Virus record (IMG/VR): IMGVR_UViG_2565956717_000009
Span: 1 to 37,482 of that record
Length of the DNA: 37,482 bases
Direction: 5' to 3' (one strand)
Origin: a virus
Taxonomy: Duplodnaviria > Heunggongvirae > Uroviricota > Caudoviricetes
Part shown: positions 1-19,492 of the stretch, one piece after another
How the letters are laid out: each line of letters begins with the position of its first letter
Position numbering within the stretch: the first letter of the stretch is position 1
Program-made: the position numbers and the translations under genes
Notes under the pieces: model-generated
What the model was told of the DNA's origin: nothing
The model's input: only the letters and a program-made list of their open reading frames with translations
The model's database searches: none

Positions 1-2946
1 TTAGTGCTTCCCTTCTATTAAGTCTAACCTAGCTTTTATTCTTTCTATTTCTCTGCGCTGCCATGCCGCCTCGATATAGAATAAGAGATCAGGTCTGACC
101 CCCCATCTAGATCCTGCTGGCGTTATTTCAACGCGCTCAATGATGTCTTCCATTACCATCACTGGATTATCATCCTCATCAACAATGATGCTCCCGTCAT
201 TATCAGTCAGCGGCATTTCCCTTTGGCCAGTAATGACGTCATCATATACTGCGGGATAATCGTCATAGCAAAGAAAGGCATAGCGGCATGTTGTGCTTTC
301 TTCTTCCATGAGTCCGTGAGAAATAAGAACATCACGAAGTTGCTGCGCGATTACACCATGATGTATCCTCGCCCCTTCTTCCCCCTTTATAGCGACAGCG
401 TTCAGCCATTTATAAGCGATATACCTGACGTCACCCCAGGCATCCAGCAATGCTTCGTCAGGAGAGACCGGCTCTGTCTTTAATGTTCCGTCACTGGTAA
501 CCACAGGATTGGAGCCAAGATAAACTGTCGAGAACCTGTTTCCCGGACCACCAAGAGCATTTACATTATCAAGATAAGGTTTAACATCTCCGTTCTCAAA
601 AAGATGTTCGAGTGCGTTATATACCGCGCGACGTGGAGTACTGCTTCCGGAACCATGCAACGTTATCATTGCACCATCTGCTGAAGACGTTGTTTCACCG
701 CCGCTAACGATTAATCTCTGAGCGGTAACATCATCAGACGGTACTTTCTTCGCAATAATGGCGTAATTACCCTCAAGTTTGACTTCCGCGCGAACTTGTC
801 CTGATGTACCTGCATGGACAGTCAGTGACTGGACGGCAACATCATCTGTGAAATCAACGGGTACAGGAACCGTCCTCACGCCTGACGTCGACATAAAAGT
901 AGGAAGCGTTCTGTTAGGAGTGGCTCCGTAGACAAAATCCCTTGAAACAAATTCTTCCTGTTTAATTTTCACCCTGAAACAATACAAATCAGCCGGGTGA
1001 CCATCGTGAACATAAGGATATTTTCTGTTGTTATCCCCTATGCTCCATGGGTTTAGAAAGTCTTCCCCACCGAAAATGTAGTACAGCCAGTTGTCTTTGA
1101 TACAAACTGAACCAACACCAACCGCAGAGTTAACTATTCCGCCCTGATAAATCTGATCAGTAACATTAACCCACTCTACATTATCCAGACTCCACTCATT
1201 GACGTTAACTCTGGTCATAAATGTTCTTGGATAATTTCCTGCATAACGGTTATCAGGTTCTCCTCCTTCCCACTCACCAAATGCGCGCTCACTGCCAAAA
1301 ATAATCAGCTCATCGCCAACTTTGGCAAAAGGAAAGTTTGAGTGATGAACATTATTTGGGAAGCGAAGAGAATTCCATGATGTACCTAAATCAGAGCTTC
1401 TGTGCAATGAACTACCGGGTTGAGTACTTAATGTCCCCCTGGTCGTCAGATACAGAATGCCATCATAATATTTTACACATGGCTCAGATGCATTCGCCTC
1501 ATATTCTGCAGGTATGCGTCTGCGAACAAAGCTACCAGGAGAACCGAAAGCATCAGAGAAATAGAGTATCCCAAGCTCGCGTGGACCAATATCACCATTA
1601 TGGTAGCCAACAGCAAAACTGTTATCGCTAATCGTCGCAAAACTGTGAATCTCAGTAACAGGAGTGCTTCCGTCAACAAAAGAAGGAATAGTTCCAAGAC
1701 TGGTTTTTCTCCATGGTGAAGAGTGAAATGATGTACCAAAACTCCAGTATCTACCCTCGTTATTCTGATCCACATCCTGGGTATTTTGCGTCGTAACTGT
1801 AAAAGTATTTTTATCAATAACAGTAGTCACCGTCATATTCCCGGTAACACCTGTAACACCAGAGTTTGAGAAGTTGACAAAATCACCAGCAAATAATCCG
1901 TGATCAGTAATGCGAATATAAGCGACTTGCTGATTTGCTGCTTTCGTTATACCACCATAAACGCGAAGGCTGCGACTCATTGGGCGATCCCACAACTCTG
2001 CAACCTGCAGTTTATTTCCGCTCACGGTCCGCGTCTCAATTACAGCAAAAAGGCGATTTCTGACAACCCCCATACACATGCAGTGATAGTTAACTGTGGG
2101 ATAGTTTTCATGTAAATCTGTAAGCCATTCCGGCGTTGTCCAGGTCTTCCCGTCATCTCCTGAGCGAACCCATGCAACATGGAGGTTATTTACACCATGG
2201 CGGTCTCCAGCCATAAAAGGCGCATAGATGACATTGTCATATACAAACGTTTTATCCTGCGTCCAGGCGTTGTACCACGGTGTATCTGTAATTTTAAATA
2301 ACTCTCCCTGGATAAAATCTTCAGAAGCATAAAAAAGAGGCTGACCCGGTATTCTCTCAAATAAAAAACGAGCATTTTTAAATCGACTGACATCTGGAAG
2401 AGTTGATACTTTAAAAGTAAGCCCTCGCCCATCTATCTTTTCACCACCTGTTGCAACAGAAAGTAATTCTGATAGAGCTGATGTATCATCATGAACACCA
2501 TCACCAATAGCCCCCCAACCTCTTACATCATAACTGTCTCTCCATCTTGCTATCTGAAGTTTTGGGTATTTATTCGCTCCATCTGGGTCTTCTAATTGCT
2601 GCCGTAACTGATCAGGATCATACTTCAGCACATTAGGAAAATAGAACTGCTGTGTACCATACGCATCATAAACAGCCATAGAATGGCCTTGCACGGTTAC
2701 GAATTTGGCAATCTGTCCGTTATATACCGGATATCCAGCAGCGTTAATCATTATTGGTTGCGAAACAGGAATGTGAGAACCGTCTTCGTTCTCTACATAA
2801 ACCTGAATCTGGTTTTCAGGATTTACCGGGTCAGTGTCAATTTTACCGATATAAATTTTGCCATTGGCTACGGCTTTAAAAGAACGCGCCATAGTGAAGA
2901 GTTGCGAAGGCATACTCACTACAACATTGGCTGTAATGTCTGTCAT
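1..2946 (-). CDS. Tailspike: P22 gp9-like head-binding N-domain + sialidase-fold (endosialidase-like) receptor domain + C-terminal intramolecular chaperone (peptidase S74-like)
   Basis: N-terminus [11 protein letters not shown]...[11 protein letters not shown]...LKYDPDQ matches recalled P22 gp9 head-binding domain; two Asp-box motifs ([16 protein letters not shown]); C-terminal ...[16 protein letters not shown]... resembles endosialidase/tail-fibre chaperone domain; 981 aa ORF. Confidence 0.88.
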
Positions 2947-3013
2947 TTAATTTGCTCCAGATACAAGGAATCGCCGCAGCATTGCCACAGTGATGCATTA
3001 TTAATCAAACAAA

Positions 3014-3028
3014 GAGACCGCTGTGGTC
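3014..3028. promoter_or_regulatory. Palindrome AGACC-GCTGT-GGTCT in tailspike/mnt divergent intergenic region; candidate operator
   Basis: Perfect 5-bp inverted arms with 5-nt spacer in the 146-bp divergent region; architecture loosely resembles recalled P22 Omnt. Binding protein not established. Confidence 0.25.
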
Positions 3029-3092
3029 TTATTGAGGATGCAACCAGCAGATAATAAGATGCCGATCCACTCACAAAAGCGAGGCATCAAGA

Positions 3093-3344
3093 ATGGGAAG
3101 AGATGACCCGCAATTTAATCTGCGGCTACCTTACGAATTAAAGGAAAAACTAAAACAGCGAGCCAAATCCAATGGCCGCTCTCTTAATTCAGAATTAGTT
3201 CAGATAGTGACTGATGCTGTATCAAAGCCATCCAAAATTTCAGGCTATCGAGACGATGCGGAACGCATCGCTGATGAGCAGTCAGAGCTTGTTAAGAAGA
3301 TGGTGTTTGATACGCTGAAGGATTTGTACAAAAAACCCACCTGA
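3093..3344 (+). CDS. mnt: Mnt-like ribbon-helix-helix repressor
   Basis: 83 aa; MGRDDPQFNLRLPYELKEKLKQRAKSNGRSLNSELVQIV...AERIADEQSELVKKMVFDTLKDLYKK closely matches recalled P22 Mnt; GAGG RBS 8 nt upstream. Confidence 0.8.
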   Translation: MGRDDPQFNLRLPYELKEKLKQRAKSNGRSLNSELVQIVTDAVSKPSKISGYRDDAERIADEQSELVKKMVFDTLKDLYKKPT

Positions 3345-3360
3345 AGGTGGGTTAATTTTT
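3331..3360 (+). terminator. Hairpin terminator at mnt 3' end (cccacc-tgaa-ggtggg + T-rich tail)
   Basis: 6-bp GC-rich stem at 3336-3341/3346-3351 flanked by A-run upstream and ttaattttt downstream; mnt stop codon lies in the loop. Confidence 0.55.
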
Positions 3361-3443
3361 GCATTTACCTGGGCCATATTGACTACTTATAAAATGAGAT
3401 CAATATTTAATCGCCCAATAACGGGTGTATGTTGAGGTATATC

Positions 3444-3623
3444 ATGGCGAAAAAACCAGGTGAAAACACAGGAAAAAACGGCGGAATATACCAAGAAGTT
3501 GGCCCACGCGGCGGTAAGAAAGACAATTTTGCAACCGTCAAGGACAACGAAAGGCTTCCACCAACAACAAAGCCAGGTCATGGCTGGGTATTGGATAAGC
3601 GAACTCCAGACAGCAAAAAGTAA
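3444..3623 (+). CDS. Small Gly/Lys-rich protein, YjzC-like (recollection)
   Basis: 59 aa from ATG 3444 with GAGGT RBS 5 nt upstream; KPGE..G.Y.EVG pattern; possible -35 TTGACT at about 3389. Confidence 0.5.
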   Translation: MAKKPGENTGKNGGIYQEVGPRGGKKDNFATVKDNERLPPTTKPGHGWVLDKRTPDSKK

Positions 3624-3628
3624 TAATC

Positions 3629-3651
3629 AAGCCGGGTCACTCCGGCTTTTT
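3629..3651. terminator. Bidirectional hairpin terminator between convergent genes
   Basis: aagccgg-gtcact-ccggctt followed by ttttt; sits between the 3' ends of 3444..3623 (+) and 3637..4002 (-). Confidence 0.55.
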
Positions 3652-4002
3652 GATATGTCGCTCGCAGAACTCAACAAGCCTGCTCATTAAGTAGCAGTAA
3701 GTCTCGTTGGCTCTTCCTGGTTCAACATCAACACCTACCCTTGAGCAGATATCGAATGCCATGTGAGCGCACTCATGGGCAATAGTAGATAGTTTGCCAT
3801 TGAACACGCCTATCACATGCAAAACACCATTCTCGCTACTCATTGTATGAGACGCTCCGTTGGCGTCCGAGTCATGCACGTCAACGCCAAGTTTTTGATG
3901 CAGGCGTTGCCATTCTGGAAAGTCTCTACAAAACACAATTGTACCGCTCTCAAAGAGCGGAACGAGCATCTTTGGTACTTTTCCAATGTTAACTTTTTTC
4001 AT
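3637..4002 (-). CDS. Small HExxH-motif protein (putative zinc metallopeptidase-like; ImmA/IrrE-like is a guess)
   Basis: 121 aa; HECAH at residues 76-80; AGGA upstream of ATG; A+T-rich coding sequence; no transmembrane segment evident. Confidence 0.5.
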   Translation of the reverse strand: MKKVNIGKVPKMLVPLFESGTIVFCRDFPEWQRLHQKLGVDVHDSDANGASHTMSSENGVLHVIGVFNGKLSTIAHECAHMAFDICSRVGVDVEPGRANETYCYLMSRLVEFCERHIKKPE

Positions 4003-4032
4003 GGTATCCTGCGTAAAACTAAGGAGGTTGGT

Positions 4033-4455
4033 GTGTTTGGTATATTAAAGAAAAGCAAGATAAAAAAATTAAGGGCAGAACTCGCCGAAACACAAAAACT
4101 GGCTTCACATTTTTACAAAATGAAATACGACGCTGAAGAGCGTGCATTCGTTGAGTTATGCGATTTATCTATTCGTATGGGAGTAGAGCCAGATGTAGCG
4201 GCAAAAACTCAACAAGGCATTGATATACTTGCAGATGTTGTTTTAAACAGGCAATATGCGTTTTATCTAAACGAGAAGGCCATTCAGATTTACTCGCAAA
4301 TCTTCCTCCTAGAAAAAAGAAGAGGAACTCACGATCGAGAAGAGTGGTTAAATGAAGTTGTTAAAAAATCTGGCTGGGAAGTTGTTTCATCAGAACTACC
4401 TCTTATTTGTGCTGATTTAATCGAAGAGGCAAAAGAGCGCCTATCCGATGGCTAG
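4033..4455 (+). CDS. Hypothetical alpha-helical protein, divergent from the HExxH gene
   Basis: GTG start at 4033 preceded by AGGAGG (4022-4027) at 5-nt spacing; in frame with ORF-track 3817..4455 but the long form has no RBS and overlaps the minus gene; 140 aa. Confidence 0.5.
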   Translation: MFGILKKSKIKKLRAELAETQKLASHFYKMKYDAEERAFVELCDLSIRMGVEPDVAAKTQQGIDILADVVLNRQYAFYLNEKAIQIYSQIFLLEKRRGTHDREEWLNEVVKKSGWEVVSSELPLICADLIEEAKERLSDG

Positions 4456-4458
4456 ACG

Positions 4459-4474
4459 AATCCATCCGTGGATT
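4459..4474. other. Hairpin (aatcca-tccg-tggatt) between convergent genes; no T-run
   Basis: 6-bp inverted repeat between the end of 4033..4455 and the gp16-like stop at 4480. Confidence 0.3.
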
Positions 4475-4479
4475 ACTAA

Positions 4480-6636
4480 TTACTCCTGTGCCATTCCGCT
4501 TAGCGATGCCACAATTCCAGCTCTTGCTAAACGCTGGAACTCTTCGTTTCCTAGTGCCTCGCGTATTGCCTTTACGGCGGCCTTATTTGCCATAAATCTG
4601 CGTTCCGCCGCCGCTAATGCACCATCACTTGCCCCAACCTTAACTGCCTTTGTTGCCTCTTGAACAGCCTTTTCAATAGCGTAACGACCACTGCGGGATG
4701 CAGCTAACTTTTCTATCGTCCCTTTAGCTATAGATCCAGAAACAGCCCCTACAACACCGCCAACAATCCCTCCACCAGTAGTACCAACAATAGCCCCTGA
4801 TGTTGAATTGCCTATTGCATTGAGAACTGTCATGACAGCTTTTGGCAGTCCTTGCTCAAGAGAGTTAATTGCCGGTATAGAGCGCCCCGTATGCTCTACA
4901 TATCGCAGTGGTCTGGTTGCTGCTCTGGCAAGGTCGCTGTATGCCCTAGCAATCTTACCCATTTCTGGCGAGTGCCTACTAATGGCAGTAATGTTCTGCG
5001 GCGTAAGGATCGACGCTATATGGAATACGCCAGCAGACTCTGATTTACCGCCACGCACCCCTTGCGATACCGCATCTTGTAATATTGATGCAATTGCAGG
5101 AGATCGCTCAGACTCTGGCAGCGCGCCAATAATCTGATGAAACTTTCCTGTCCCACTTTTTGATGAATTTTGCAAGGCTTTAATACCATCAGTGACTAAC
5201 TGATCAGTTGCAAGGTTTCTAAACGCTGCTTCAGCCTGTTCTTGTGCTGTAAATCTTGCTTTTGACAGATCATTAGCTTTTTGCCAGTCATCAAGAAAAC
5301 CGCCATTTTGAGCCATTATGCGCATATCTTCCGTTGCTGCATCACGAAGCTCCGCCATGCGCCTTGCCGTATTTGCCTCACCAGACCTTATATACTTCTG
5401 CTCAGCGTCAGCAAGTTTACTTCGCCATGCCTTCATGGCATCAAACGTGATTCCTTTTTTACCAGTTTTAGCATAAGCAGATGCAAATTGTTTCATCTCA
5501 GGAGTTAGCGGCATGCCAGCCAAAATATCACCCTGAATTGTAGCGTTCAGGTTTGACATTCTGGCCTTTGCGTCAGGCATCGTGGAGCGGACGCTATCCC
5601 ATGCTGCCTTTTCTGAGTTCTTCATTTTATCAATACTTGCTAAAACCCTTTGTTTTATGGCTGCACTTTTTTCTGATGCAGATCCAGCCTCAGCACCAAG
5701 TTCATCAAGTGCTGAGTGGAATTTCGACTGTATTTCACTAAAAGCCCTAGTATGTGCATCCTGAACAATTCCTGGTTCGGATGCCAATATCCCTTCGGCT
5801 TGTGCAATTCCACGACTTCCAGATCGCATTCCTGGTGTTAATGCGTTTATATCAATTCCAGCAGACTCAGCTGCTTTTGCTACATCTTCGGACACATTAG
5901 CGGCCTGACTGGCAATTGACTGACGCCCAGCACCTGACTTTGCCATCCTGGAAACATCATTAGCAGAATTCAGTGCTGCACCACCAAGAGCCTGTGAAAC
6001 CTTTGGCGCAATAACGCGCCCGACACCTGAAAGAACGCCTTGAGCACCAATATTGATACCACCGTTAATGGCAGCATTTTGTGCAAAATCACCCTCCTGA
6101 TTTGCAGCATCAGCAAGAGAACCGGCAATCATGTTTCCTGCGGAACCGATGTCTCCTGCGAGCTTTGCTGGCGCTCCAGCAGCTTTTGCCGCTGTGCCAA
6201 TTGGCAGGAGATACCCACCAATTGTTTCACCGGCTTGTGCGTAAGAGTCTGTCGGTCGATCGACTGGACGATAGACATCATCCAAAACCTTGGGGCCACC
6301 AAGCCCCTGGCTGATTGCATTAATCAGACTTGCGCCACCCTGCAATACGTCAAATGGTATGTTTACCAGACCACGACCAGCCTGTTCTGCAATTTGCCCT
6401 GCACTTTGACCACCAGTGAGCCAATCGCCAGCTTGTTGCATCAATGATGGTTCTTCTTTCTGCTGCTGAGGCGGATGGTATGCTGCATAAAACTGATCTC
6501 TTGCTTCAGCCCATTTGTCACCAGCCTTAGGGGCAACAACCTCATCAAAATATTGCGCTTGAGCCTGTGCTTTCTGTTCTTCAGTTAACGCCTGATACTG
6601 TGGAGAGGCGATAACATCTTTCCATGCTTTAGCCAT
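4480..6636 (-). CDS. Ejection (DNA transfer) protein, P22 gp16-like
   Basis: 718 aa, Ala/Gly/Gln-rich; position and order 7-20-16 immediately upstream of the immI region as in P22. Confidence 0.7.
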
Positions 6637-7985
6637 TAATCACCCCATAAAGACGAGAAACCGGACTTATTGCTGTCGCTTCCTGATTTTCGCTCACTAA
6701 CATATGTGTCATAACCTGATGAACTATATCCCATTGATTCAGCCTCCCTTGCTGCAACCTTTTGAAATACAGAATATTGCGATCGGATTTCAGATAACTG
6801 TTTTCTGACGACCTCTTCAGGCTGTGTTATATCGAGTTTCGCGATAAGGTTTTCCAGTTTTTGTCCTTCAGCATTGGAGAGGCTACCCATACCTCGCATA
6901 GTCTGCACGTTCTGGACAAACGCACCCGACTTTAATTCTTCTATCGCATTACGGTTTGCAAGCCCTTCAGCACTTGTGAAGCCATCTATATTTCTTCCTT
7001 CGAAGCGACCGATACCTTCAAGCTCCTTCTTACCAAGCAAAGAATCTATTTTCTCTATCCCTCGCTCACCAGTAATCAACGCATTGTTGTAATTATTGTT
7101 GCCATCAAGCCATCTCTTAGCCTGAGACATTCTGGCTGACGTTGCAGCTTTACCGGTTAGCGGATCAATTCCCGTCGCTGCTATCTGTGAGTTAAGAGAC
7201 AAAACATCCATATCCTGAAGTTGTCCTGCTCTTTCAAGGGCCGCCTGTGACTGCTTAAACACATACTTGTCGTGATTCAGTCTTGCCATTTGAGCCTTAT
7301 AGGAAAGATCCTGCCCCCTAATAGCCCTCGCATTCGTCATGTCATTATTGCGAATGGTTTCGTTAATTCTTTGCTGCTCCTGCTGGCGACCAACCATCTT
7401 GTCCTGAACAGCAAACGCCTTTTCTGGTCCAAGCGCACCGAGAGACATAGTAGTCAGCATGTGTGATAGCTGCTCTGGATTCTGGATACCTGTCTGAATC
7501 ATCCAGTCAGCATTAGCACCAACGCGATTTAACCTGTCCTTGTTGTCAGTAATGAATTTACTGTAGGCTTCCGGTCCCTGAGAAAGAGCGACGTTAGCCC
7601 TCATGGCTAAATCGCCCATATCGTTGCGTTGCTGATCATTAAGACCTGAAAACGCCTGTTGTGCCTGTGCAACAAACGCTGGATTTTCCTGGGCAAACTT
7701 AAATAGTCCCGATGGATCACCAGAAGCCCATGCATCAGCATGAACCTTATTGAACGCACTAATCGCTTTCTGTTGCTGTTCCTGCTTATAAATATCAGCA
7801 ACTCCAGCCAGACCACGTAACGCGGTCAGACCAACGTTATTTGCACCTGAGCGAGCCAGTTCATTGTTTTCGCGGATCAGACCAAGCGTTGCGTTAATGT
7901 CGCTTGCCTTTGGCGCATTCTCATTTTGCGCACCGATGCCAGCAAGAAACCCACCAGAATTAATACCCTGTTGCCACGTAGCCAT
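6636..7985 (-). CDS. Ejection protein, P22 gp20-like
   Basis: 449 aa; ATGA overlap with downstream gene; conserved order. Confidence 0.7.
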
Positions 7986-7995
7986 TGATTACCCC

Positions 7996-8688
7996 TTAAA
8001 ACAACGAGCCAAGCAGACCAAGACCAGCACCGATACCAGCACCCCACGGAGTTGATAGCTCGAGAGCACTGGCTATGCCACCACCCAAAAGTGCACCGGA
8101 TGCAGCACCACTAACCCCCTGCTGCAATGCTGACGGTCGGTTGGCGTTTGCCGCAGCCAGCGCCGCGCTTTGCTGTGAAATCTGACTCATGTTGTTGGCA
8201 TATGTCTGCCCGGCGTTTGCCTGTCCCTGAAGAGCGCCAAGACCGATATTTGCCAGGTTGTTGTAATTGTTCATTTGTCCAGATAGCCATTGCTGACCAA
8301 GCGTTGGTGCGATTGTTGCTAACTGATTACTGGTTGCGGTGGAACCCAATCCACCTGTTGCTTCCGCTGCCGCCAGACTCTGATAGCGAGCCTGACCAGC
8401 AAGATCTTTGTACTGCTGAGAGTTGTAATACTGGTTAAGTGCCTGACCTTGCCCCTCCAGAGACGATAAGTTCTCGAGGCTGCCGACATACTTCTCAGCC
8501 AGAGGAGTAAACGGTTTCAGGTTGTTCATGATGGTGTTGAACTGCTGATTTTGCAGGTCTGCGGCATACTTCTGAGCTTCTGCTGCATACTTTGCGCTTT
8601 TATCAGAACTGCCACCTTTCCCGCCTTTTTCAGGGCAATAAGGTTCCTCGCCGCGCAGTTTTCTGCCCAGCTTAAATGCATATAACAT
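7996..8688 (-). CDS. Ejection protein, P22 gp7-like
   Basis: 230 aa (recalled P22 gp7 is about 229 aa); Gln/Ala-rich; conserved position. Confidence 0.7.
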   Translation of the reverse strand: MLYAFKLGRKLRGEEPYCPEKGGKGGSSDKSAKYAAEAQKYAADLQNQQFNTIMNNLKPFTPLAEKYVGSLENLSSLEGQGQALNQYYNSQQYKDLAGQARYQSLAAAEATGGLGSTATSNQLATIAPTLGQQWLSGQMNNYNNLANIGLGALQGQANAGQTYANNMSQISQQSAALAAANANRPSALQQGVSGAASGALLGGGIASALELSTPWGAGIGAGLGLLGSLF

Positions 8689-8690
8689 GG

Positions 8691-9146
8691 CTATCTCCCG
8701 TGCTTCAGGAAGTCGATTAGTTCTTCGCGTGTGGCGCTGTAAAACGTCACGTCATCCACGCCTTTGAAGTATTTCTTGATGGTTCCTACACGCTTAAGGC
8801 CAATCATTGCGCAGTACATCTGCCCGTGGCGGAATTTGCGTGCAGCGAACGATGTGACGCACTGAACGGTGGTGTTAGTCAGAATGTATCGCCAGAACGC
8901 CAGCCCGATTTCCTTGCTGAAGCCGCGAATCTCTGGCAGGTACATGGCGTGGCAATCAAAGGTCAGCGGCTGAATCTCCTGATAGTAAACAATTCCGCCG
9001 AACTGCCCGTGCACGTTCACCTCAAAGTAACGGCATTCAGGTTTGTAGTCGTATCCATCACCGTTGTTGCTCCCGGCGATAATGTCAGGGTGATTTCCTA
9101 CGGCTTCTATCAGGTCGATGTTTCGCGTTGGTTTGAATGTAATCAT
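8691..9146 (-). CDS. P22 gp14-like protein (by position)
   Basis: 151 aa between tail needle and gp7 homologues; start overlaps the gp26 stop. Confidence 0.55.
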   Translation of the reverse strand: MITFKPTRNIDLIEAVGNHPDIIAGSNNGDGYDYKPECRYFEVNVHGQFGGIVYYQEIQPLTFDCHAMYLPEIRGFSKEIGLAFWRYILTNTTVQCVTSFAARKFRHGQMYCAMIGLKRVGTIKKYFKGVDDVTFYSATREELIDFLKHGR

Positions 9147-9847
9147 CAGTCAATCAGCCCATGTAATCTAAGTGCCGTTTCAAGCGCCAGAATACGCTGC
9201 CGCGCCTGCTGCAAACCTGTAGCGAGGGCTGCGACTTCGGATTGTGTGTACGTAGTGCCGACTGTGTATGACTGGTTAGCGTTGAATGAGCCAAGAAGAG
9301 GTGTACCTGTGGCTGCAGTCCATCCGGTATTTCTTGCTCCAACAACCTGAATTCCATCAACTGAATATGATGTTTTTACATCCAGCGGTGACTCAAGAGA
9401 CTGCAATTCGGTTACGGTTTTCGATACGTAATCACTCTTAATGCCAGAGACATCGTTTTCTACCTCATCCAGTCTTTGGTCAACAGTGACCAGATGCGCC
9501 TGAATATCGATAACCTCATCCAGCAAGTAATCAACATCGCTACGCAGTACGACTATCTTCCCTTCGGCAGTTGTTAACCTGACCTCAAGTAGATTTATCG
9601 CTTTTGTGTTTGCGGTGATTCTTGCGTCGTGATCAGCCAGTTCGACATCCTGTTCATCGTTTTTTACCTGGGCATCGTAAGCGCCCTGACCAGCCTGATT
9701 TGCCTTCCCGGCAATTGCGCCGACATCAGCCCCCTGATTAATGACATACAGCAGGTAAGACTGGCTGAATATATTGCGTGGAAGGATTGATGTATCGAGT
9801 CGTGTAGCCTGGATGATTACCGGCACATTGAGATTCGAATCAGCCAT
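9146..9847 (-). CDS. Tail needle protein, P22 gp26-like
   Basis: [25 protein letters not shown]... and C-terminus ...[45 protein letters not shown] match recalled gp26; start at internal ATG 9847 with GGAGG 7 nt upstream. Confidence 0.85.
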
Positions 9848-10385
9848 TAACATGCCTCCACGATTTACCAGACTGGATATTGTGAATCACCGTCTGACTG
9901 ACACAGTATTTTTTAGCAAGCTCTCTTTGATTAACTCCCTTTGATTTCTTTATTTCTATTACTTGCTCATATGATAGCTTTGAAATTGGATTATTTTCTC
10001 CTTTTAAAGCCGGAAACTTCACCCTGCCTTGAGATGAGCAATGCTTCATATTCTCCTTTTGAGTACACCACTCTAAATTAGAAGCATTATTATTTTTTCG
10101 GTTGTTATCTATGTGATTTATGAACGGCTTGCCTTCTGGATTGGGGACGAAAGCAAGAGCGACAAGCCTATGCACAAGCCATTTTACTTTAACTCCATCA
10201 ACACTAAGTGGCAAATATAGATAACCTTTATTATTCTCGTGTTGTTTTAGCCACCGCCCCTTTCTGAGTTGCGTGCTGCCATGCGCAGCTTTAACAACAC
10301 GTGAGTGAGAATATACTCGCCCATCCTCTGTTACGGCATATAAACCTTCATATCCAGGAATATCTTTTGCGTTTTCACTCAACAT
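9840..10385 (-). CDS. HNH homing endonuclease (NUMOD4-like N-motif + HNH + C-terminal HTH)
   Basis: [18 protein letters not shown] (NUMOD4-like), [12 protein letters not shown]...[24 protein letters not shown] (HNH), C-terminal [22 protein letters not shown]; strong AAGGAG RBS; A+T-rich. Confidence 0.85.
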
Positions 10386-10406
10386 ATCTACTCCTTTAGT
10401 TTCGAT

Positions 10407-11825
10407 TTATGTTACACGAATAGAAAGGCCTGATAATGTAACAGGACCTTTTGCAATAACTCTGAATTTAAATCCAATGAGGCGTCTAACTCGACCAACT
10501 TTTCGCCATAAAACGCGATTGTCATATACAAATGGTTTTTGTAATACGACCATTTGCTCACGACCGTAACTAATTCCATCTGTAGTGGCTGATATAAATA
10601 TTTTATCTATTCTATCACACACGCCGCCCGATGTTTCTAATTCAAGGTCATTTATTAAAGCGTTATCTGCCTTTATTAAAGGAGAATATAAAATATGTTC
10701 CTGCTGCTTGTCGTACTGGCTGCTGATATCGAACTGCAATTTCCCGGTCACCGATTCCAGCTTATCGCCGCACGTTATCTGATTGCCTTCGTAAATGAAG
10801 TCGATAGCGCGGTACACATCGTCATACAGGCCTGTTTTCAGCACACACCATTGCGGACCATTGGCGCTTGAAGATGCGTCGTACACGAGAACATGGCGCG
10901 GAAGGTGGATAATCAGCAACTCATGAGCATCAAATCGCAGCGATTCCATCACACCATCAGCCAGTTCATCAGCAGTGTAGGAGCGGAGGATTTTCTCAAT
11001 GCTCGCGCTGGCGATTGGTGACACCTGACCGGAACCGATGATGTACACAGACGGCGCACCTGTTGCCGGATTGCTGATGAACGCATACGAATCAGCAAAC
11101 GGCGTTTTGCAGTAAGTCCCGGCAATGCCTTTCTGCACCATCAGCGATGGCTGTGCGACATACAAAGCAGCACCAACTGTGGTTGCACCAGTCAGGGAGA
11201 AATATTCAATCGTCGATGAGCCAAAGCAGACGATGAAGTCTCGCCATGTTCCGATGCCGATGATGCCGTCAGGCTGTGATTCTGCCCGATATTGTGCGCT
11301 GTAGCGGTCAGGATGCGATTCGTCTTCAAGATCAGTGATAAACCATGAATCAGTACCGTCTTTTGACCACGCATAACGCCCACGTAAGCGAGTAATGTCA
11401 CGAACCGAACCTAATTCATACTGCGTAAATCCGCTGTCTGCAGGCCAGTTTGAGACGGTTTTAACCGTGCCATCATAGCGATACTCGAAAAGTTGACCAT
11501 TAACGCCTACCGCCTGTGATGTCCGACCATGCGCCATTGATACGCGACCACTTCCGGCAACATCACCGACTTCACTTTCTCCTTTGTACAGCTTGCCACC
11601 ACACACGCGATAAACAGCATTCTGCGCCATGTTGTACTCGACGCCTCGAGATACACCGTTCACATCAGAACGTTTTGCAATGCCCGGGAATGAGCGAAGA
11701 TATCCGCTGCTGTTAAGGATTTCTTTGGGTGTAGCCAACATATTTACTGGCAGATAGTCGATATAGTCGGCGTTTCGAAAGTCTTTGCCGACACCTTTCA
11801 TAAGCGGAAGTTGCTGAATCGGCAT
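10407..11825 (-). CDS. Tail accessory/hub protein, P22 gp10-like
   Basis: 472 aa, same length as recalled P22 gp10; conserved position. Confidence 0.75.
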   Translation of the reverse strand: MPIQQLPLMKGVGKDFRNADYIDYLPVNMLATPKEILNSSGYLRSFPGIAKRSDVNGVSRGVEYNMAQNAVYRVCGGKLYKGESEVGDVAGSGRVSMAHGRTSQAVGVNGQLFEYRYDGTVKTVSNWPADSGFTQYELGSVRDITRLRGRYAWSKDGTDSWFITDLEDESHPDRYSAQYRAESQPDGIIGIGTWRDFIVCFGSSTIEYFSLTGATTVGAALYVAQPSLMVQKGIAGTYCKTPFADSYAFISNPATGAPSVYIIGSGQVSPIASASIEKILRSYTADELADGVMESLRFDAHELLIIHLPRHVLVYDASSSANGPQWCVLKTGLYDDVYRAIDFIYEGNQITCGDKLESVTGKLQFDISSQYDKQQEHILYSPLIKADNALINDLELETSGGVCDRIDKIFISATTDGISYGREQMVVLQKPFVYDNRVLWRKVGRVRRLIGFKFRVIAKGPVTLSGLSIRVT

Positions 11826-11834
11826 TTATTCACC

Positions 11835-12296
11835 TCACGTACTCGGATCATCTTTCTCGATGTAAAACCGATTCCACGTAAACGCGCTTTTGTTACCACT
11901 ACCGCGAGGCATGTCATTTCGTCGCTCAAGTGGTGGTATTTTGGTTAAAGCGATACAGATTGTCTGATATGCACTGTCAGCAGCGGTAAGGAGAGCGTCT
12001 GACGGCTGAATGACGTTATCCATGCACACTTGCACAGCGAGTTTCAAAGCGACGCCATCATTTGCCCATGCAGGGATACCTGAATCATCGTCAGGTAACG
12101 GCATGATGCCGTTTTCTGTATCAGCAAACTGATACCCAAGCTCGATACCTTTAGCCTGCCATGCTGCCATCATGTCTTCGAGGTCATTAATGGCATCTTC
12201 AATTGCCTGAGGGTCAGCATCTGTCAACGTGGCATTGGAATACAGCCCGGCTTTTCGTAAAGCCTTAAGAACGAGATCACCCTTCGTTTTCGCCAT
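11835..12296 (-). CDS. Tail accessory protein, P22 gp4-like
   Basis: MAKTKGDLVLKALRKAGLYSNATLTDADPQAIEDAINDLEDMMAAW resembles recalled gp4 N-terminus. Confidence 0.75.
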   Translation of the reverse strand: MAKTKGDLVLKALRKAGLYSNATLTDADPQAIEDAINDLEDMMAAWQAKGIELGYQFADTENGIMPLPDDDSGIPAWANDGVALKLAVQVCMDNVIQPSDALLTAADSAYQTICIALTKIPPLERRNDMPRGSGNKSAFTWNRFYIEKDDPST

Positions 12297-12465
12297 CTTC
12301 TTCCGCCTTAGCCACTTTTTGCTTCGTTGCGGTTTCTTCAGGAGTTTTTACCCAGCCTTTTTTCAGGTGAGATTTAACTTCTTCGTCATCAACAATGATG
12401 TAATCGACAGCAAACTGACCACAGGTGATCATGTTGCCAGGCTTATAGAGCATTGTTCGTGCCAT
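12277..12465 (-). CDS. Small hypothetical protein with acidic C-terminal tail
   Basis: 62 aa from ATG 12465 with GGGAG RBS at 6-nt spacing, just after the coat terminator; overlaps gp4 start by 20 nt. Confidence 0.35.
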   Translation of the reverse strand: MARTMLYKPGNMITCGQFAVDYIIVDDEEVKSHLKKGWVKTPEETATKQKVAKAEEDGENEG

Positions 12466-12476
12466 TGTCTTCTCCC

Positions 12477-12500
12477 AATAAAAATGGGGCCGAAGCCCCA
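12477..12500 (-). terminator. Hairpin + T-run immediately downstream of the coat gene (partial terminator)
   Basis: On the minus strand TGGGGC-TTCG-GCCCCA followed by TTTTTATT, starting 7 nt after the coat stop. Confidence 0.5.
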
Positions 12501-12506
12501 CCAAAA

Positions 12507-13760
12507 TTACTGCCCGGCAATAACGATGCCCGTATATTCAGGAACCAGTACAGAGCAACCGTACAGAGTGGTGAAACGTGCAGTGGTTACGCCTTTGATG
12601 TGGTCGAAGGCGTAAGACATGATCAGCGTAGCGCCCTGCTCGGTGGTTGCTGTCATTACCTGTGGCCCCTGACCAGTCGGGAATGCCAGTTTGCCGTACA
12701 TCAGTTCAACAGAACCATCAGCCCAGAACAGGTTAGCCGGTGCGGCATTTTTGTTGAGAATGGTAATTGCTGCACCATTTGCCGCGTTAGCATCAACGTT
12801 TGCATATGGACGGCTGGCGACATCCGCGTTGTCAGGCGGCAAAATTTTCGGGGAGATAGTTACTGTCGTTCCGCTAACTGCCAGAACGCGGAATACCTGC
12901 GGCTGCCCGGTGGTGTCTTTGGTGATCTGGTGTACAGAATTCACCCCTGCAATGGTAAATGCATCGCCAACCTGCAAACCAGATGCAGATACCGTAATGG
13001 TCCCCTGTCGGTTATCCACTGGCATATCGTTGGCGTCTTTCGCTTCAACCTTGTGCGCAGGTTCGGCCGCCAGCGTAATGGAAGTCGCAGTCCCTTTCGG
13101 AACACGACCAGAAATATCGGTCTTGTAGCTATCAAAGGAAGCAATCGGAGGGATCTGCGCTTTTTCGTATGCTGTCAGGGTTGCGCCCTGAGCGTAGGCA
13201 CGGTGACCAAGCTCGCCAGCAAGGTCTTTGTAGTTGAAGGGGTTCCAGAAAGAGCGACGGTTGATACCCTGCGGTACACCAATCGCCGTCATGGTGGCAT
13301 CAATACCTGCCGCACAGTTCCACAAATCACGGCCCTGTGAACCAGTGGTTGAGTCAGCCATTGTGATCACGTTAGTAGCACGCTGCGTGACCATGGAAAT
13401 CAGGTCAGAGTCAATCTGTGCAGCAAGGCGCATACCTGCGGCGCGACCAGCTTCAGTTTTATGTTCCGGGTCACGCATTTCACGCGCATCCAGAGTGTAC
13501 AGAATGTTTTTAGGCTCCTTGAACACAGAAGGAACAAGGCGCTGAACCAGTGCTGTTGGCGTTTTGCTGCTGAGGTCGAGGCCTTCCTCAATGTTCATGT
13601 GGTAATGCTGCGGACGATACAGAACATCACCTGCTCGCTGCATTGCTGTATCACCGGGACGGAATTTTTTAGCGTTACGGGAAACTACGCAGGCGGCCTC
13701 AAAGCCTTCAACGTAGTTTTCGAACATGATTTCAAGGTCTTTTGCTAATTGGTTAGCCAT
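12507..13760 (-). CDS. Major coat protein (P22-like HK97-fold)
   Basis: 417 aa between scaffold and gp4; P22 gene order. Confidence 0.85.
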   Translation of the reverse strand: MANQLAKDLEIMFENYVEGFEAACVVSRNAKKFRPGDTAMQRAGDVLYRPQHYHMNIEEGLDLSSKTPTALVQRLVPSVFKEPKNILYTLDAREMRDPEHKTEAGRAAGMRLAAQIDSDLISMVTQRATNVITMADSTTGSQGRDLWNCAAGIDATMTAIGVPQGINRRSFWNPFNYKDLAGELGHRAYAQGATLTAYEKAQIPPIASFDSYKTDISGRVPKGTATSITLAAEPAHKVEAKDANDMPVDNRQGTITVSASGLQVGDAFTIAGVNSVHQITKDTTGQPQVFRVLAVSGTTVTISPKILPPDNADVASRPYANVDANAANGAAITILNKNAAPANLFWADGSVELMYGKLAFPTGQGPQVMTATTEQGATLIMSYAFDHIKGVTTARFTTLYGCSVLVPEYTGIVIAGQ

Positions 13761-13778
13761 GCTTAATGCTCCGATAGG

Positions 13779-14672
13779 TTATTTTTTTGCCTTTTTAGCG
13801 GCGAAATACGGCGTCCAGTCACCAGTTTCCAGCGCCTTGGCTTTCAATTTGTCGAGGTTGTTGATAACTGCGCCGTTGCTCCCCTTAACTGTCGGGGTTG
13901 TGGCTGCCGTGGTTTTTGCTTTTGGCATGATTCTGGCCTTCGATTCGATACGTTCCAGCAGACGACCAATTGCTACGGGGTTGGTAGCTTCTGCCAGTTG
14001 CTTGCGCAGTTCAGCGTTGCGACCGAGTGCCAGAACAACGATTTCCGGCTTCTCTGACTCAAACAGGATCGCGTTTTGTGTCTCGATGGGGATTTCCTCG
14101 AGTACGGCCTGTTCTGCTTCCTGATAGCCAGGAACCTTGAGAGCCTTAACACGTTGCTGATATTTGGATAATCGCTCTTGATAGGCAGCCTGAAGCTCCT
14201 GCTCCTTCTGCTTGCGAGCTATCTCCTGTTGCTGGTACTTGCCGTTATCCTCTGCCCACTTAGCCATGCGTTGCTGATAGATTTCTTCATCGAAACCGAT
14301 GTCCTCATCATCCAGTTTTGGCATTCGCGGTGGTTGAGTGATTACCGGCTGCTGCTCGACGGGTTTCTGAGACTGACGCATCAGCTCTTTCAGCTCGCGG
14401 TCTTTCTCTTTAATCGTCTTGCGCAGGTGTTTTACCAGTCCATGCTCTGCGCTATCTTCGCTGGTTGGCGAATCCAGCTTTTCGTCACCAAAGTAGAATT
14501 CCTGTTCTGATTCGTCGTCATCAGTGTCAGTAGCTTCCTCTGCATCATTTCCTGAGGACTCACTGCCATCTGCTGTTTCGACTTCTTCAGCCAGTTCGAC
14601 ATCATCAGGAATCTGCTCTGACGCGTCGGTTTCGATTTCAACTTCTGGTGTGTTTTCTGCCATCTGGTCCAT
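13779..14672 (-). CDS. Scaffolding protein
   Basis: 297 aa, highly acidic N-terminus, helical Lys/Glu-rich C-terminus; between portal and coat. Confidence 0.75.
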   Translation of the reverse strand: MDQMAENTPEVEIETDASEQIPDDVELAEEVETADGSESSGNDAEEATDTDDDESEQEFYFGDEKLDSPTSEDSAEHGLVKHLRKTIKEKDRELKELMRQSQKPVEQQPVITQPPRMPKLDDEDIGFDEEIYQQRMAKWAEDNGKYQQQEIARKQKEQELQAAYQERLSKYQQRVKALKVPGYQEAEQAVLEEIPIETQNAILFESEKPEIVVLALGRNAELRKQLAEATNPVAIGRLLERIESKARIMPKAKTTAATTPTVKGSNGAVINNLDKLKAKALETGDWTPYFAAKKAKK

Positions 14673-14762
14673 TTGTTACCCCTGTTTACTCGATGTTCAG
14701 CCCATCGGAAGGCAATAGGGTGCCAGGCCTCATAAAGACAGCCATTGCACGTTATGGGTTAA

Positions 14763-16961
14763 TTACTGCTGTGGTTGTTGCTGAGTTGATTTTTGTAGGA
14801 TGCTGCTGATGTCCATGCGCTGCGCATGACCCTGTGCCTGACTTTTCAGGACAAGCTCTGCATCAGCACGGGCATTGTCTCCTTGCTGTTGCTGGAACTG
14901 TCCGAGCAGTTTCAGAGCCTCGCGGATATCAGATTTCTGCTGACTATCGGCAGATGCGAGGATTTTCACAACATTTGCCGCAGCAACCTGAGCATCAGTC
15001 TGTGCCTGGAATGCTTTAACCTGAATGGCTGCCTGTTCGTTCTGCGCTTTCTGCAATTCAGCCTGACCAGCAAGAAGCTGACCTTGCGCTGCAACCATAG
15101 CCGGATCTGGCTGACTGGCCTGTTGTTGTTTCGCCTGCTCAACCATCTGCTGCTCTTCTGGCGTTCTCGGCTTGATAACTCCAGACAGAAGCAACTGATT
15201 GCGGTTGTATTCTTTAAGGTCATCCATCCCTTCGCCGTCCATATTGTCGAGAATCATCGACGATACAAGGTCGTGCTTCGGCGTTCCTGGTGGGATAAGT
15301 GCCAGCATGGAAAGTAACGACTTAACCGTTGCATCACGGCGAGTAGCGAACGACTGACCGACATCGACAGTCACTTCATAGTTACCCTGCGAAAGGTCGT
15401 TAAGCGCGATAACCTGCCCTGTCTGACGGTCAACCACTTCACCAGTCATCAGCGCCACGTCATCGCTGCCGTCCTCATTAACAATGCGCATTGGCGTATC
15501 GCTGCCATAGACTTCACGAGCCATAGAAAGCCACACGACGCCAGCGCGGCGCATGGATTTAGCCATGTTGTCCATGTAGATATAGGACTGCGTGTCCATC
15601 CGGTTAAAGATGCTATCAACGGTATCGGTAGCGACGTTGCTCGGCATATTCTCAAGCTGCGACGCACCTGTAATTTGCTGAATAGCCGTTCCGGTGTACT
15701 GCAATAGCCCGGCAAGAGCAGGAGGCATTTGTGTCGGAGGTGTATAACTGCTGACCTGAGCCTGCGCAGTAATATCTCCGTTTTTGTTTTTCAGACTTAC
15801 CATCGGCAGGAACGCCGGGCGCTTTTTGTTGCGCTCCGCCCAATGATTGGCGAGAGGACCAGGAATCATGTCAACATCAACTACAGGAATGCCATCACCG
15901 CCAGCCTGAGTAGCGTTATCTGCAATCATGGAAACCATCAGGTTCTCAAGACGCTGTGCATCCATCGCTTTTGCTGCGTGGCCTTCGATTCGCTCCTGAT
16001 TATCAACAAATGAGCGACGCCCATATACCGGGATGAGTGGAATATGTTCTCCCGGAATACGCTTTGGTTCTTCCAGCCATTCAGCGCCAGACAGAAGGCC
16101 GCAATAAACGCGGCGTTTCTTCACCGTTCGCTCACCAATCAGTTCGAATGCGCCATCGGTTAGCTCGTCGACAACATCTTTGATTTGCTCTTCATCATAG
16201 ATTGCCGTTTCTCCGCTAACAGGGTTGCGCCACGCCGTGAGCTTCACCTTCTCTATGCGAACTTCGTAGTAGCGTCCAACATAGATGGCATCGGGCGTTG
16301 ACCAGTCATATTGAGTGCCAGTGTCATCACGAGAAAGGCTTGCCGCGATGGAATCAGGGTATTCAGCCTCGAACGCTTTAGGCGTCATGGAGAACATTTC
16401 CATAGCCCACATAGCATCAGAGCGGTCATATTGCTTGCTGTCCTGATCGAAGAAGACGCATGTCGCTGGGTCGTAAACAGGAAGAAGGCTGATGCGTCGC
16501 TGCTCGTTACTCGGATCCATTTCATCTTCGTAATCAGCACACATGCGGAAACAACCGAATCCGCCCGTTACAGCATCATCAAATGCGTTATCACACGCTT
16601 CGCCACCGGATGTTTCCTGATAATCAGCGCGGAATTTGCCGTTCATCTTTTCGGCTAACGCTTCCGATGCCTTGTCATCCTTCGGCCTGAATTTAACGCT
16701 GATGCGATTCTGCCGATACTCGCCAATGATGCGATCACATTCACGGGAAATCTTATTCAGTTCAAAACGCGGATAATGCTCAAACCTGCCTTCATCAAAT
16801 GAGTAACCAGCGTTTGTGCTGCCTTCCCACTGTGCGCCGGACACCCGGACGAAACGTTGAGCCTCAATAATCTGCTCACGCATATCCTGCGTTGCTGACC
16901 AGGCATTATCAAAGTTGCACAGCACCTTGCGATGCCAGTCAGTCATCTTTTTTTCTGCCAT
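14763..16961 (-). CDS. Portal protein
   Basis: 732 aa (recalled P22 gp1 about 725 aa) with long C-terminal Gln/Ala-rich helical barrel; downstream of TerL. Confidence 0.9.
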   Translation of the reverse strand: MAEKKMTDWHRKVLCNFDNAWSATQDMREQIIEAQRFVRVSGAQWEGSTNAGYSFDEGRFEHYPRFELNKISRECDRIIGEYRQNRISVKFRPKDDKASEALAEKMNGKFRADYQETSGGEACDNAFDDAVTGGFGCFRMCADYEDEMDPSNEQRRISLLPVYDPATCVFFDQDSKQYDRSDAMWAMEMFSMTPKAFEAEYPDSIAASLSRDDTGTQYDWSTPDAIYVGRYYEVRIEKVKLTAWRNPVSGETAIYDEEQIKDVVDELTDGAFELIGERTVKKRRVYCGLLSGAEWLEEPKRIPGEHIPLIPVYGRRSFVDNQERIEGHAAKAMDAQRLENLMVSMIADNATQAGGDGIPVVDVDMIPGPLANHWAERNKKRPAFLPMVSLKNKNGDITAQAQVSSYTPPTQMPPALAGLLQYTGTAIQQITGASQLENMPSNVATDTVDSIFNRMDTQSYIYMDNMAKSMRRAGVVWLSMAREVYGSDTPMRIVNEDGSDDVALMTGEVVDRQTGQVIALNDLSQGNYEVTVDVGQSFATRRDATVKSLLSMLALIPPGTPKHDLVSSMILDNMDGEGMDDLKEYNRNQLLLSGVIKPRTPEEQQMVEQAKQQQASQPDPAMVAAQGQLLAGQAELQKAQNEQAAIQVKAFQAQTDAQVAAANVVKILASADSQQKSDIREALKLLGQFQQQQGDNARADAELVLKSQAQGHAQRMDISSILQKSTQQQPQQ

Positions 16962-16962
16962 A

Positions 16963-18378: not shown

Positions 18379-18902
18379 TTTCCGAATAGAGTGCTCATCG
18401 GTGATGTTTCAATCTGGATTGCGCCGCCGTCTTTGCCTGTTAGTTCGTGAGAAGCTTGTTCTTTAAACGCCTGAACAGAAACATGCTTACCAAGAAGTTC
18501 GAGGTTTTTAACCTTATCAGGCCATTTGATTTTCTTCAGGAGTGCGGCGCTATCTGCGGATGCCATCTCCACGACATCCATTCCTGATAACGTTGTGCGC
18601 CATACCTTAGGCCAGTCTTTAATGGGTTTTAGCTCACCGTTTTGCAGGAGAATGTCAAGCACATCCATCTGGTCGATTTCAATAAGGCGATTAAGTACAT
18701 ATTCTGCATTAATACCAACAAGATCATTGCGTTGTGCTTTCAGTTCGGCGATTCTGAGTTGTATGTCAGGTTTTGACATGTTTTCGGACGCAGTACGGTT
18801 GGCTGTTTTTGCGCTGTACCCCGCCCGAATAGCCGCTTGCGTGGCGTTTAAATCGATGAGGTACTCGCGACAGAACATTTCTTGCTTGTCGGTGAGTGCC
18901 AT
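18375..18902 (-). CDS. Terminase small subunit
   Basis: 175 aa; LTDKQEMFCREYLIDLNATQAAIRAGYS typical of phage TerS. Confidence 0.85.
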   Translation of the reverse strand: MALTDKQEMFCREYLIDLNATQAAIRAGYSAKTANRTASENMSKPDIQLRIAELKAQRNDLVGINAEYVLNRLIEIDQMDVLDILLQNGELKPIKDWPKVWRTTLSGMDVVEMASADSAALLKKIKWPDKVKNLELLGKHVSVQAFKEQASHELTGKDGGAIQIETSPMSTLFGK

Positions 18903-18926
18903 TTAATTACCTTTGGGAGATGCCCA

Positions 18927-19460: not shown

Positions 19461-19470
19461 TTATTCAGGT

Positions 19471-19492
19471 CGGGTTTAACACCCGGCTTTTT
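19471..19492 (+). terminator. Rho-independent terminator after the YkgJ-like gene
   Basis: cgggt-ttaac-acccg followed by gcttttt, 11 nt after the stop codon. Confidence 0.55.

Follow-up and report, generated by a model that had tools for sequence, protein, structure and literature searches.

In T4-type phages, free-standing endonuclease genes are promoterless cassettes embedded in operons, and their products cut hundreds of base pairs (bp) away from their own gene; everything that lies between cut and gene is necessarily co-converted, and signals for expressing the essential gene downstream are located within the endonuclease gene, an arrangement that favours retention of the latter (PMC2988022). 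The HNH enzymes MobA, MobE and I-HmuI make single-strand nicks (PMC2988022). A study of the genus Skunavirus describes I-HmuI-like free-standing HNH genes that cluster by insertion site and adjoin polymorphic core genes, and names D74, H75 and N96 as the catalytic residues of I-HmuI (PMC12724721). Here we analyse an HNH endonuclease gene that lies between the tail genes gp10 and gp26 in a stretch of 37,482 nucleotides (nt) from a virus of the class Caudoviricetes (IMG/VR record IMGVR_UViG_2565956717_000009; the whole stretch is hereafter called the window). The viral genome in question is P22-like, and P22-like phages are classical subjects for the study of how virions assemble and how mosaic genomes arise.

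The HNH gene is one component of a promoterless cassette of ~850 bp in the late operon of a P22-like phage or prophage, which consists of a recoded 3' end of gp10 (hereafter the gp10 tail), a 21-nt leader and the HNH gene itself; the 3' end of the HNH gene carries the ribosome-binding site (RBS) and the start codon of the essential gp26. On the strength of sequence comparisons and of the analogy with the systems above, we estimate a probability of about 0.7 that this is a free-standing homing endonuclease of the I-HmuI type that spreads by gene conversion together with a co-converted, probably cleavage-resistant gp10 end.

Comparison of the gp10-gp26 junction with that of related phages, which a first-pass annotation of this DNA had proposed, revealed abundant empty sites in phages and in bacterial genomes alike; the outcome that would have refuted the annotation, close relatives that all carry the gene and none with an empty site, was thus not obtained. 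About 15 close phage relatives (HK620, APC_JM3.2, CUS-3, IME10 and others) match the window on both sides of the HNH gene, with a span ~560 bp shorter, and in these relatives the stop codon of gp10 and the start codon of gp26 overlap as TAATG. Among 50,697 phage records, Escherichia phage HZ41 is the sole carrier of the same arrangement as in the window. P22-like prophages were matched in 914 of 5,426 complete Escherichia coli genomes, in up to four places per genome, and a 300-bp probe across the HK620 junction was covered over at least 80% of its length in 815 of the 5,426; up to 16 of these may carry an insert of the 683R2 type described below, which leaves ~800 empty junctions. Because ~800 P22-like prophages of E. 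coli have an empty junction, the HNH gene is optional. The A+T-rich gp10 tail is present in 56 of the same genomes; the cassette occupies ~6% of the junctions, and the HNH gene is missing from roughly 90% of the close relatives. Proteins that are 85, 75, 68 and 61% identical to the window protein are encoded at this junction too, again with a 21-nt spacing, in divergent P22-like prophages, one of them in Providencia rettgeri. A scan of species-representative genomes for close relatives of the HNH gene returned only a Vibrio fragment with 41% identity, and a literature search that did not cover Casjens and Thuman-Commike 2011 and Casjens and Grose 2016 yielded no paper describing an HNH gene at the gp10/gp26 junction.

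The HNH open reading frame (ORF), of 546 bp, had been taken for a simple insertion, a description that base-level alignment with the empty alleles does not bear out: ~290 bp of the empty allele have given way to a block of ~846 bp, which includes recoded versions of the last 95 codons of gp10. The gp10 gene is ~95% identical to the empty alleles at the nucleotide level up to its nt 1130, whereas from nt 1131 to the stop codon the identity is ~55% for nucleotides and ~63% for amino acids; in the body of the gp10 protein, most alignment columns are invariant among the aligned relatives. On the other side of the block, homology to the empty-site relatives resumes at TAATGGCTGA, the start of gp26. 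The A+T-richness of the HNH gene relative to its neighbours, which had also been pointed out, is real, with a G+C content (GC) of 0.394 compared to 0.507 in the gp10 body and 0.469 in the whole window, but it is not confined to this gene: the A+T-rich stretch extends beyond the HNH ORF into gp10, covers its last 289 nt and ends near position 10695. The gp10 tail has a GC of 0.349 and a GC at third codon positions of 0.20, versus 0.51 in the gp10 body. The block at 9862-10695 (GC 0.374) falls below every 834-bp segment sampled at 50-bp steps across the whole window (mean 0.470, standard deviation 0.036). Neither a leftover ordinary gp10 tail nor a second HNH copy was detected when these were sought across the window.

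In five backgrounds, namely the window, KE40 and the loci L015, L017 and L019, the tract has its left edge at one and the same gp10 codon, 377/378, with a shared codon context (Q-E-H; GAACAT ATT TTA). In the O111-type cassette, the edge is ~30 nt further left. In L015, L017 and L019, the gp10 body has a GC of 0.53-0.57 and the last 290 nt a GC of 0.37-0.41, and a near-identical leader with the same 21-nt spacing follows. The fixed edge may alternatively reflect a structural or domain boundary in gp10; in the Sf6 structure, the apical domain with which gp10 docks on gp4 contains both its C-terminal and its N-terminal extension (PMC9728967). Apart from HZ41, the best phage matches to the gp10 tail are those of Proteus phages (67.7% amino acid identity), hardly above the value for P22 (65.6%), and the Providencia rettgeri cassette, although located at the same site, has a gp10 tail that is not especially close to that of the window.

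The junction had been considered an unusual site for such a gene, a view that does not survive the comparison with other genomes: four different HNH genes occupy it in ~72 of the 5,426 E. coli genomes, and the same site is used in Providencia rettgeri and in other P22-like prophages. Three of the four are NUMOD4-HNH alleles located behind an A+T-rich gp10 tail: the window type (181 amino acids (aa); 16 genomes), the O111 type (177 aa; 36 genomes) and the KE40 type (181 aa; 4 genomes). Their carriers add up to 56, as many as the genomes with the A+T-rich tail, a match of counts that favours linkage between the tail and the nuclease gene. These alleles show 44-56% protein identity to one another (51% for window versus O111), yet all start with MLSE and all end with WRHVNG followed by the stop codon, the stretch that holds the gp26 signals. 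The gp10 tails of the window and O111 types are separated by a synonymous divergence (dS) of 0.077 and a nonsynonymous divergence (dN) of 0, whereas the bodies of the two HNH genes are ~50% identical in nucleotide sequence, with ~98% identity on both sides and sharp limits near 10345 and 9860. Because the tails are nearly identical and the HNH bodies are not, we conclude that the nuclease gene was swapped inside the cassette.

The fourth occupant, an unrelated HNH_3 + AP2 gene of 164 aa, follows a gp10 tail that is essentially ordinary and is carried by phage 683R2 and by 16 E. coli genomes. In phage vB_EcoP-683R2 (locus L003, 2348-2842), this gene is annotated in the record as 'endolysin'; its start lies 2 nt beyond a gp10 end that is slightly recoded (..SIRLE*), and the gene itself ends in a copy of the ordinary gp10 end, AGGATTGAGTAATGG, which encodes ..RIE*. 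Because the gene finishes with this copy, the ordinary gp10 end has been kept as the tail of the inserted gene.

Two individual E. coli genomes show further variation. In M160133 (NZ_CP022164.1, ~1922916-1924842, homologous to window 9750-10900), the cassette match is split in two and an IS1A transposase is annotated within it, which looks like an insertion-sequence disruption in or beside the cassette. In ETEC6334 (NZ_CP122604.1), two places match the O111-type HNH gene; one of these, 1548376-1548844, covers 90% of the O111-type query and is annotated 'HNH endonuclease | hypothetical protein', and this one may be a second or rearranged copy.

Salmonella phage UPF_BP1 and 18 E. coli genomes have an HNH gene at a second site, located at the opposite end of gp10. 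There, 93 nt of the ordinary gp10 5' end remain, and after this remnant come the same leader (ATCGAAACTTTAAGGAGTAGAT ATG) and then a NUMOD4-HNH gene of 194 aa, the 3' end of which overlaps a recoded, A+T-rich new start of gp10; the first ~120 nt of this recoded start are ~60% identical to ordinary alleles and have a GC of 0.41. The second-site HNH gene of LD39-1 is also preceded by a leader of the window type. As judged by sequence, this arrangement is the mirror image of the window cassette. The gp4/gp10 junction of the window itself (~11826-11834) is empty. The window HNH protein and the second-site HNH proteins of loci L010, L007 and L004 hardly differ in their first 47 residues (10245-10385 in the window), with ~88-89% nucleotide identity over 132 nt, while the remaining protein is ~40-50% identical. 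This pattern suggests that an N-terminal DNA-binding module has been shuffled between the endonucleases of the two gp10 sites.

Divergence within the cassette is lower than in the adjacent gp10 body. The window and HZ41 show 9/856 differences over the cassette versus 46/978 over the gp10 body (p = 3e-6), and three O111-type carriers differ by 0.8-1.8% in the cassette versus 5.3-7.2% in the gp10 body (p = 1e-6 to 1e-9); in these four carrier pairs, the cassette is 4-6 times less diverged (p = 3e-6 to 8e-9). Because of this difference, the cassette copies appear to be younger than their surroundings. Furthermore, the same HNH allele occurs with different gp26 types. These sequence patterns are those expected of an element that spreads horizontally, as the cassette probably does. 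The insertion had been called recent, and this holds for the cassette copies, which are younger than their flanks; the association of the gene family with the junction, in contrast, is old, given that the alleles are only 44-56% identical in protein.

The HNH protein belongs to a family of classical homing type. The Pfam matches to NUMOD4 (2.4e-11; 44.1 bits versus a cut-off of 23.4) and HNH_3 (1.7e-10; 40.8 bits versus 24.8) are above the family cut-offs, and the protein also matches phrog_59, 'HNH endonuclease' (3.3e-58), and the PADLOC homing-endonuclease model (8e-27); among the NCBIfam models, none matches. The helix-turn-helix (HTH) part of the NUMOD4/HNH/HTH make-up proposed by the first-pass annotation is less secure than the other two: the HTH_3 match is weak (E 0.0048; 17.3 bits, under the cut-off of 23) and HTH-only protein matches have E > 0.3, while the structural model has three C-terminal helices, at residues 139-147, 153-160 and 164-171. 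This AlphaFold2 model, built on 77 homologues, has a mean predicted local distance difference test score of 91.2 and comprises N-terminal beta-strands (residues 6-70), a beta-beta-alpha core and the three helices. I-HmuI (1U3E) is the sole solved structure with significant sequence similarity to the protein (2.3e-12), and 1u3e_M is likewise the sole match with E <= 0.001 in a Foldseek search of the Protein Data Bank (PDB; E 1.4e-8, probability 1.00, 182 columns, template modelling (TM) scores of 0.52 and 0.54). The root-mean-square deviation is high, 9.4 Å, as expected because the protein is elongated, multi-domain and modelled without DNA. H91, N103 and N112 of the HNH protein align with H75, N87 and N96 of I-HmuI, and N90-H91, N103 and N112 agree with the consensus in 111-112 of 112 homologues. 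By its catalytic motif, its NUMOD4 module and its modelled overall fold, the protein is an I-HmuI-like member of the NUMOD4/HNH_3 group, and the gene has all the sequence-level attributes of a free-standing homing endonuclease gene, with cleavage as its predicted activity.

Selection on the gene appears to be strong. The dN/dS ratio is 0.04-0.07 wherever dS is measurable, that is, for the closer pairs, dS being saturated for distant ones (returned as -1), and all four differences between the window gene and that of HZ41 are synonymous. Because of these low ratios and the synonymous nature of the HZ41 differences, we conclude that the HNH gene is intact and maintained by purifying selection.

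Under the reading that we favour, the cassette would move when cassette-bearing and cassette-free P22-like genomes meet in one cell. The enzyme would nick or cut the ordinary allele within the last ~100 codons of gp10 or at the gp10/gp26 junction, and recombinational repair would then copy the whole block from the carrier. The recoded gp10 tail would always be co-converted with the nuclease gene because it has too little homology to recombine with ordinary tails, and, as it probably lacks the target site, carriers would be protected from cutting.

Several points weigh against homing. We infer, rather than observe, the endonuclease activity, the position of the target, the immunity of the recoded tail and biased inheritance. 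At the position of the I-HmuI metal ligand Asp74, the HNH protein has an asparagine (N90), although this is the norm of the subfamily, being present in 111 of 112 homologues. No donor lineage with a wholly A+T-rich gp10 was found. Ordinary mosaic recombination among P22-like phages could equally lower the divergence of the cassette, and in distant carriers the dS of the gp10 tail, 1.0-1.4, is only moderately below that of the gp10 body, 1.6-2.1, with both values near saturation. The strict linkage of the gp10 tail to the HNH gene could follow from non-homology inside the block, even without immunity, and the agreement between the sum of the carriers of the three alleles (16 + 36 + 4) and the 56 genomes with an A+T-rich tail is an equality of counts, the sets not having been compared member by member. 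In a passive alternative, which we consider unlikely, the block would be exchanged by ordinary homologous recombination at conserved flanks, with the HNH protein, perhaps inactive on phage DNA, playing no part. Apart from the predicted status of cleavage and the fact that the linkage between tail and nuclease gene is expected of any non-homologous block, it is favoured by the alternation in type of P22-like gp26 genes after a conserved 5' end. However, passive exchange leaves unexplained the strong purifying selection on an HNH gene with an intact catalytic motif, the convergence of four different HNH genes on one junction with a related one at the other end of gp10, the placement of the left edge at one codon in five backgrounds, and the classical homing type of the protein family.

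Other roles for the nuclease are still less probable. It might be kept as a weapon that damages or converts superinfecting or co-resident P22-like rivals, to the benefit of the carrier phage or lysogen, so that the gene would not be purely selfish. Marker exclusion by free-standing endonucleases is documented in T4 (PMC2988022) and for the HNH genes of Skunavirus (PMC12724721); the target would be an essential virion gene, and the abundance of P22-like prophages in E. coli, with up to four matching places per genome, would provide the rivals. The present data do not separate such a function from homing, but the presence of the cassette at only ~6% of junctions shows no sign of a strong advantage, and we regard this explanation as improbable. 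A packaging-associated HNH protein that helps the terminase to cut DNA is scarcely credible here, even if HNH proteins that serve packaging are known, such as the GVE2-like 'HrdP' encoded in every Skunavirus between TerL and portal (PMC12724721): the window gene is flanked by gp10 and gp26, ~6.6 kb away from the large terminase gene (at about window 16963-18378, as mapped from the E. coli SCU-124 prophage), is absent from most of the close relatives, which package normally, and encodes a protein of the NUMOD4/HNH_3 I-HmuI type rather than the packaging type. Equally remote is the prospect that the gene is a decaying, functionless remnant of an old insertion. Damaged copies do exist elsewhere, for example, that with IS1 in the matched region of M160133, as do truncated relatives, such as the 113-aa protein P0073, but the window copy has its full length and lacks none of the motif residues, and both its dN/dS and the synonymous differences from HZ41 speak against decay.

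A further, tentative elaboration of homing, which we consider possible but rather doubtful, is that the cassette is a two-part module of a cutter and a resistant target directed against rival gp10 alleles, in which the recoded end is the immunity determinant, and that gp10 is the centre of an arms race. Such an arms race would also drive the exchange of the neighbouring needle and spike genes, and its marks would be the three HNH alleles behind one tail, the HNH-AP2 gene and the mirror-image cassette. The N- and C-terminal extensions of gp10, which are encoded by the two recoded ends, fold into one apical domain of the hub (PMC9728967).

The genes around the junction, including gp14, gp7 and gp4, follow the usual P22 order according to Pfam and phrog matches, and the HNH gene is on the minus strand, a correction to the first-pass annotation (Table 1). 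Most of what that annotation said of the immediate layout stands. The HNH gene is free-standing, an intact and independent ORF with its own AAGGAG located 5 nt before its ATG, and gp10 and gp26 are complete on either side; the gp10 stop codon, TAA at 10407-10409, lies 21 nt upstream of the HNH start. The GGAGG and the start codon of gp26 are indeed embedded in the 3' end of the HNH gene, the GGAGG being 7 nt from the ATG at 9845-9847, and the HNH stop codon, TGA at 9840-9842, and the gp26 start overlap by 8 nt, ATGGCTGA. The gp26 start at 9847 (MADSNL...) agrees with the annotated start in relatives and with the GGAGG distance; the ATG at 9851-9853 (MLMADS...), given by the ORF list, was rejected since relatives start at 9845-9847, with the GGAGG 7 nt away. 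Because no Rfam family is significant in 9300-11200, there is no intron at the locus, and an intron-encoded homing endonuclease was ruled out given the lack of an intron family match and the complete gp10 and gp26 genes on either side. Promoter-like sites are not in excess (5 found versus 5.8 expected in shuffled sequence), and a search for transposon-like terminal repeats found none. RefSeq already labels the gene 'NUMOD4 domain-containing protein'.

Table 1. Features of the gp10/gp26 junction and of the second HNH site. Positions refer to the window unless a locus is named.
Feature	Position	Strand	Basis or remark
HNH endonuclease gene, free-standing, 181 aa, ATG start, TGA stop	9840..10385	-	ORF list and Pfam
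Protein domains: NUMOD4, residues 7-60; HNH_3, residues 70-113; three-helix C-terminal domain, residues 139-171	within HNH ORF 9840..10385	-	
gp26, tail needle gene, downstream neighbour of HNH	9146..9847	-	phrog_1219, 1.1e-112
gp26 Shine-Dalgarno sequence, GGAGG	9855-9859	-	inside the last HNH codons (..W R H V N G *)
Leader between gp10 stop and HNH start, 21 nt, ATCGAAACTAAAGGAGTAGAT	10386..10406	-	sequence reading
HNH Shine-Dalgarno sequence, AAGGAG	10391-10396	-	within the leader; 5 nt before the ATG at 10383-10385
gp10, tail hub/DNA-stabilisation gene, upstream neighbour of HNH	10407..11825	-	Pfam Phage_stabilise, 7.9e-283
gp10 body, ordinary allele common to empty-site relatives	10696..11825	-	90-100% nt identity to HK620 and APC_JM3.2 per 60-nt block
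Alternative A+T-rich gp10 3' end, codons 378-472 and stop codon	10407..10695	-	alignment, GC
Whole foreign block, ~846 bp replacing ~290 bp of the empty allele	9850..10695	-	base-level alignment to HK620, APC_JM3.2 and UPF_BP1
HNH ORF body exchanged as a sub-module between alleles	9862..10345	-	30-nt identity scan against O111, K56 and KE40
Second-site HNH cassettes	L010 2056-2782; L007 3867-4592; L009 3867-4592; L004 3713-4297		

Across the window, identity to the SCU-124 prophage amounts to 99.65% in 7387-24504 and to 99.7% in 1-4035; the SCU-124 prophage adjoins tRNA-Arg, intS and yfdC. The two differ in ~4036-7386, where the genes for the ejection proteins lie, and over most of the early region (beyond 24504), and because of these differing regions the window is a mosaic relative of the SCU-124 prophage rather than the same prophage. 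A YkgJ-family cysteine-cluster gene, at about window 18927-19460 (+), as mapped from L012 29228-29761 of the near-identical SCU-124 prophage, is annotated there on the opposite strand, with the small terminase gene on one side and the lysis genes on the other, and resembles an accessory ('moron') gene. At 12485-12500 (-), immediately downstream of the major capsid gene, a GC-rich hairpin followed by a run of T occupies the position of the annotated terminator tGP5 of HK620.

If the homing interpretation is correct, temperate P22-like phages carry actively homing endonucleases inside the tail operon, and part of the mosaicism at gp10/gp26 is driven by endonucleases rather than by chance recombination. 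The HK620-type empty allele and the window-type occupied allele would then form a testable pair with which homing induced by nicks and the immunity of target sites could be studied in a temperate enteric phage. The cassette as such is an ordinary example of a well-understood class, and what is mildly unusual about it is limited to the recoded gene end within the cassette, the swapping of alleles and the existence of a second, mirror-image site.

Compared to the described systems, terminase-associated HNH proteins resemble the window protein in having an HNH nuclease motif and in being encoded in the late region of phages, but they belong to another HNH subfamily, are universal in their phage groups and adjoin the terminase, whereas the window gene is optional and distant from it. 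The free-standing HNH genes of the lactococcal Skunavirus share with the window gene the protein type, the variable presence, the clustering by insertion site and the polymorphic flanking core genes; they differ in that their carriers are lytic siphoviruses of Gram-positive hosts and most of the HNH copies are in the replication module (PMC12724721), and they are not known to form a recoded gene-end cassette. I-HmuI of Bacillus phage SPO1 (PDB 1U3E) shows the same order of a NUMOD4 beta-strand region, an HNH beta-beta-alpha-metal core and C-terminal helices, and its catalytic histidine and two asparagines align with those of the HNH protein. However, the sequence identity is 27%, Asp74 of I-HmuI is replaced by Asn, I-HmuI is encoded in a group I intron of a DNA polymerase gene rather than free-standing between tail genes, and nicking has been shown for I-HmuI, whereas the HNH protein is known here from its sequence and a model.

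The closest parallel in organization is the 'intronless homing' of T4 MobE, MobA, SegF and SegG. These genes, too, are promoterless, lie between essential genes and are polymorphic for presence and absence, with a diverged piece of the neighbouring gene being co-converted and the downstream signals located inside the endonuclease gene; in both cases, cleavage is expected to take place some way off from the gene. The differences are that the host of the window cassette is a temperate P22-like podovirus or prophage, that tail genes rather than genes of nucleotide metabolism and replication flank the endonuclease, that the Seg enzymes are of the GIY-YIG and not the HNH type, and that the co-converted piece in the window is extreme, a 95-codon gene end at 55% nucleotide identity. 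Experiments have demonstrated homing by the T4 enzymes, whereas for the window cassette it is what we infer. In relatives of T4, SegH and Hef reportedly replace mobC and mobE, so that different endonuclease genes occupy one site, as do the three NUMOD4-HNH alleles and the HNH-AP2 gene at gp10/gp26; at the window junction, however, three of the four occupants are distant alleles of one family that have retained the same first and last codons.

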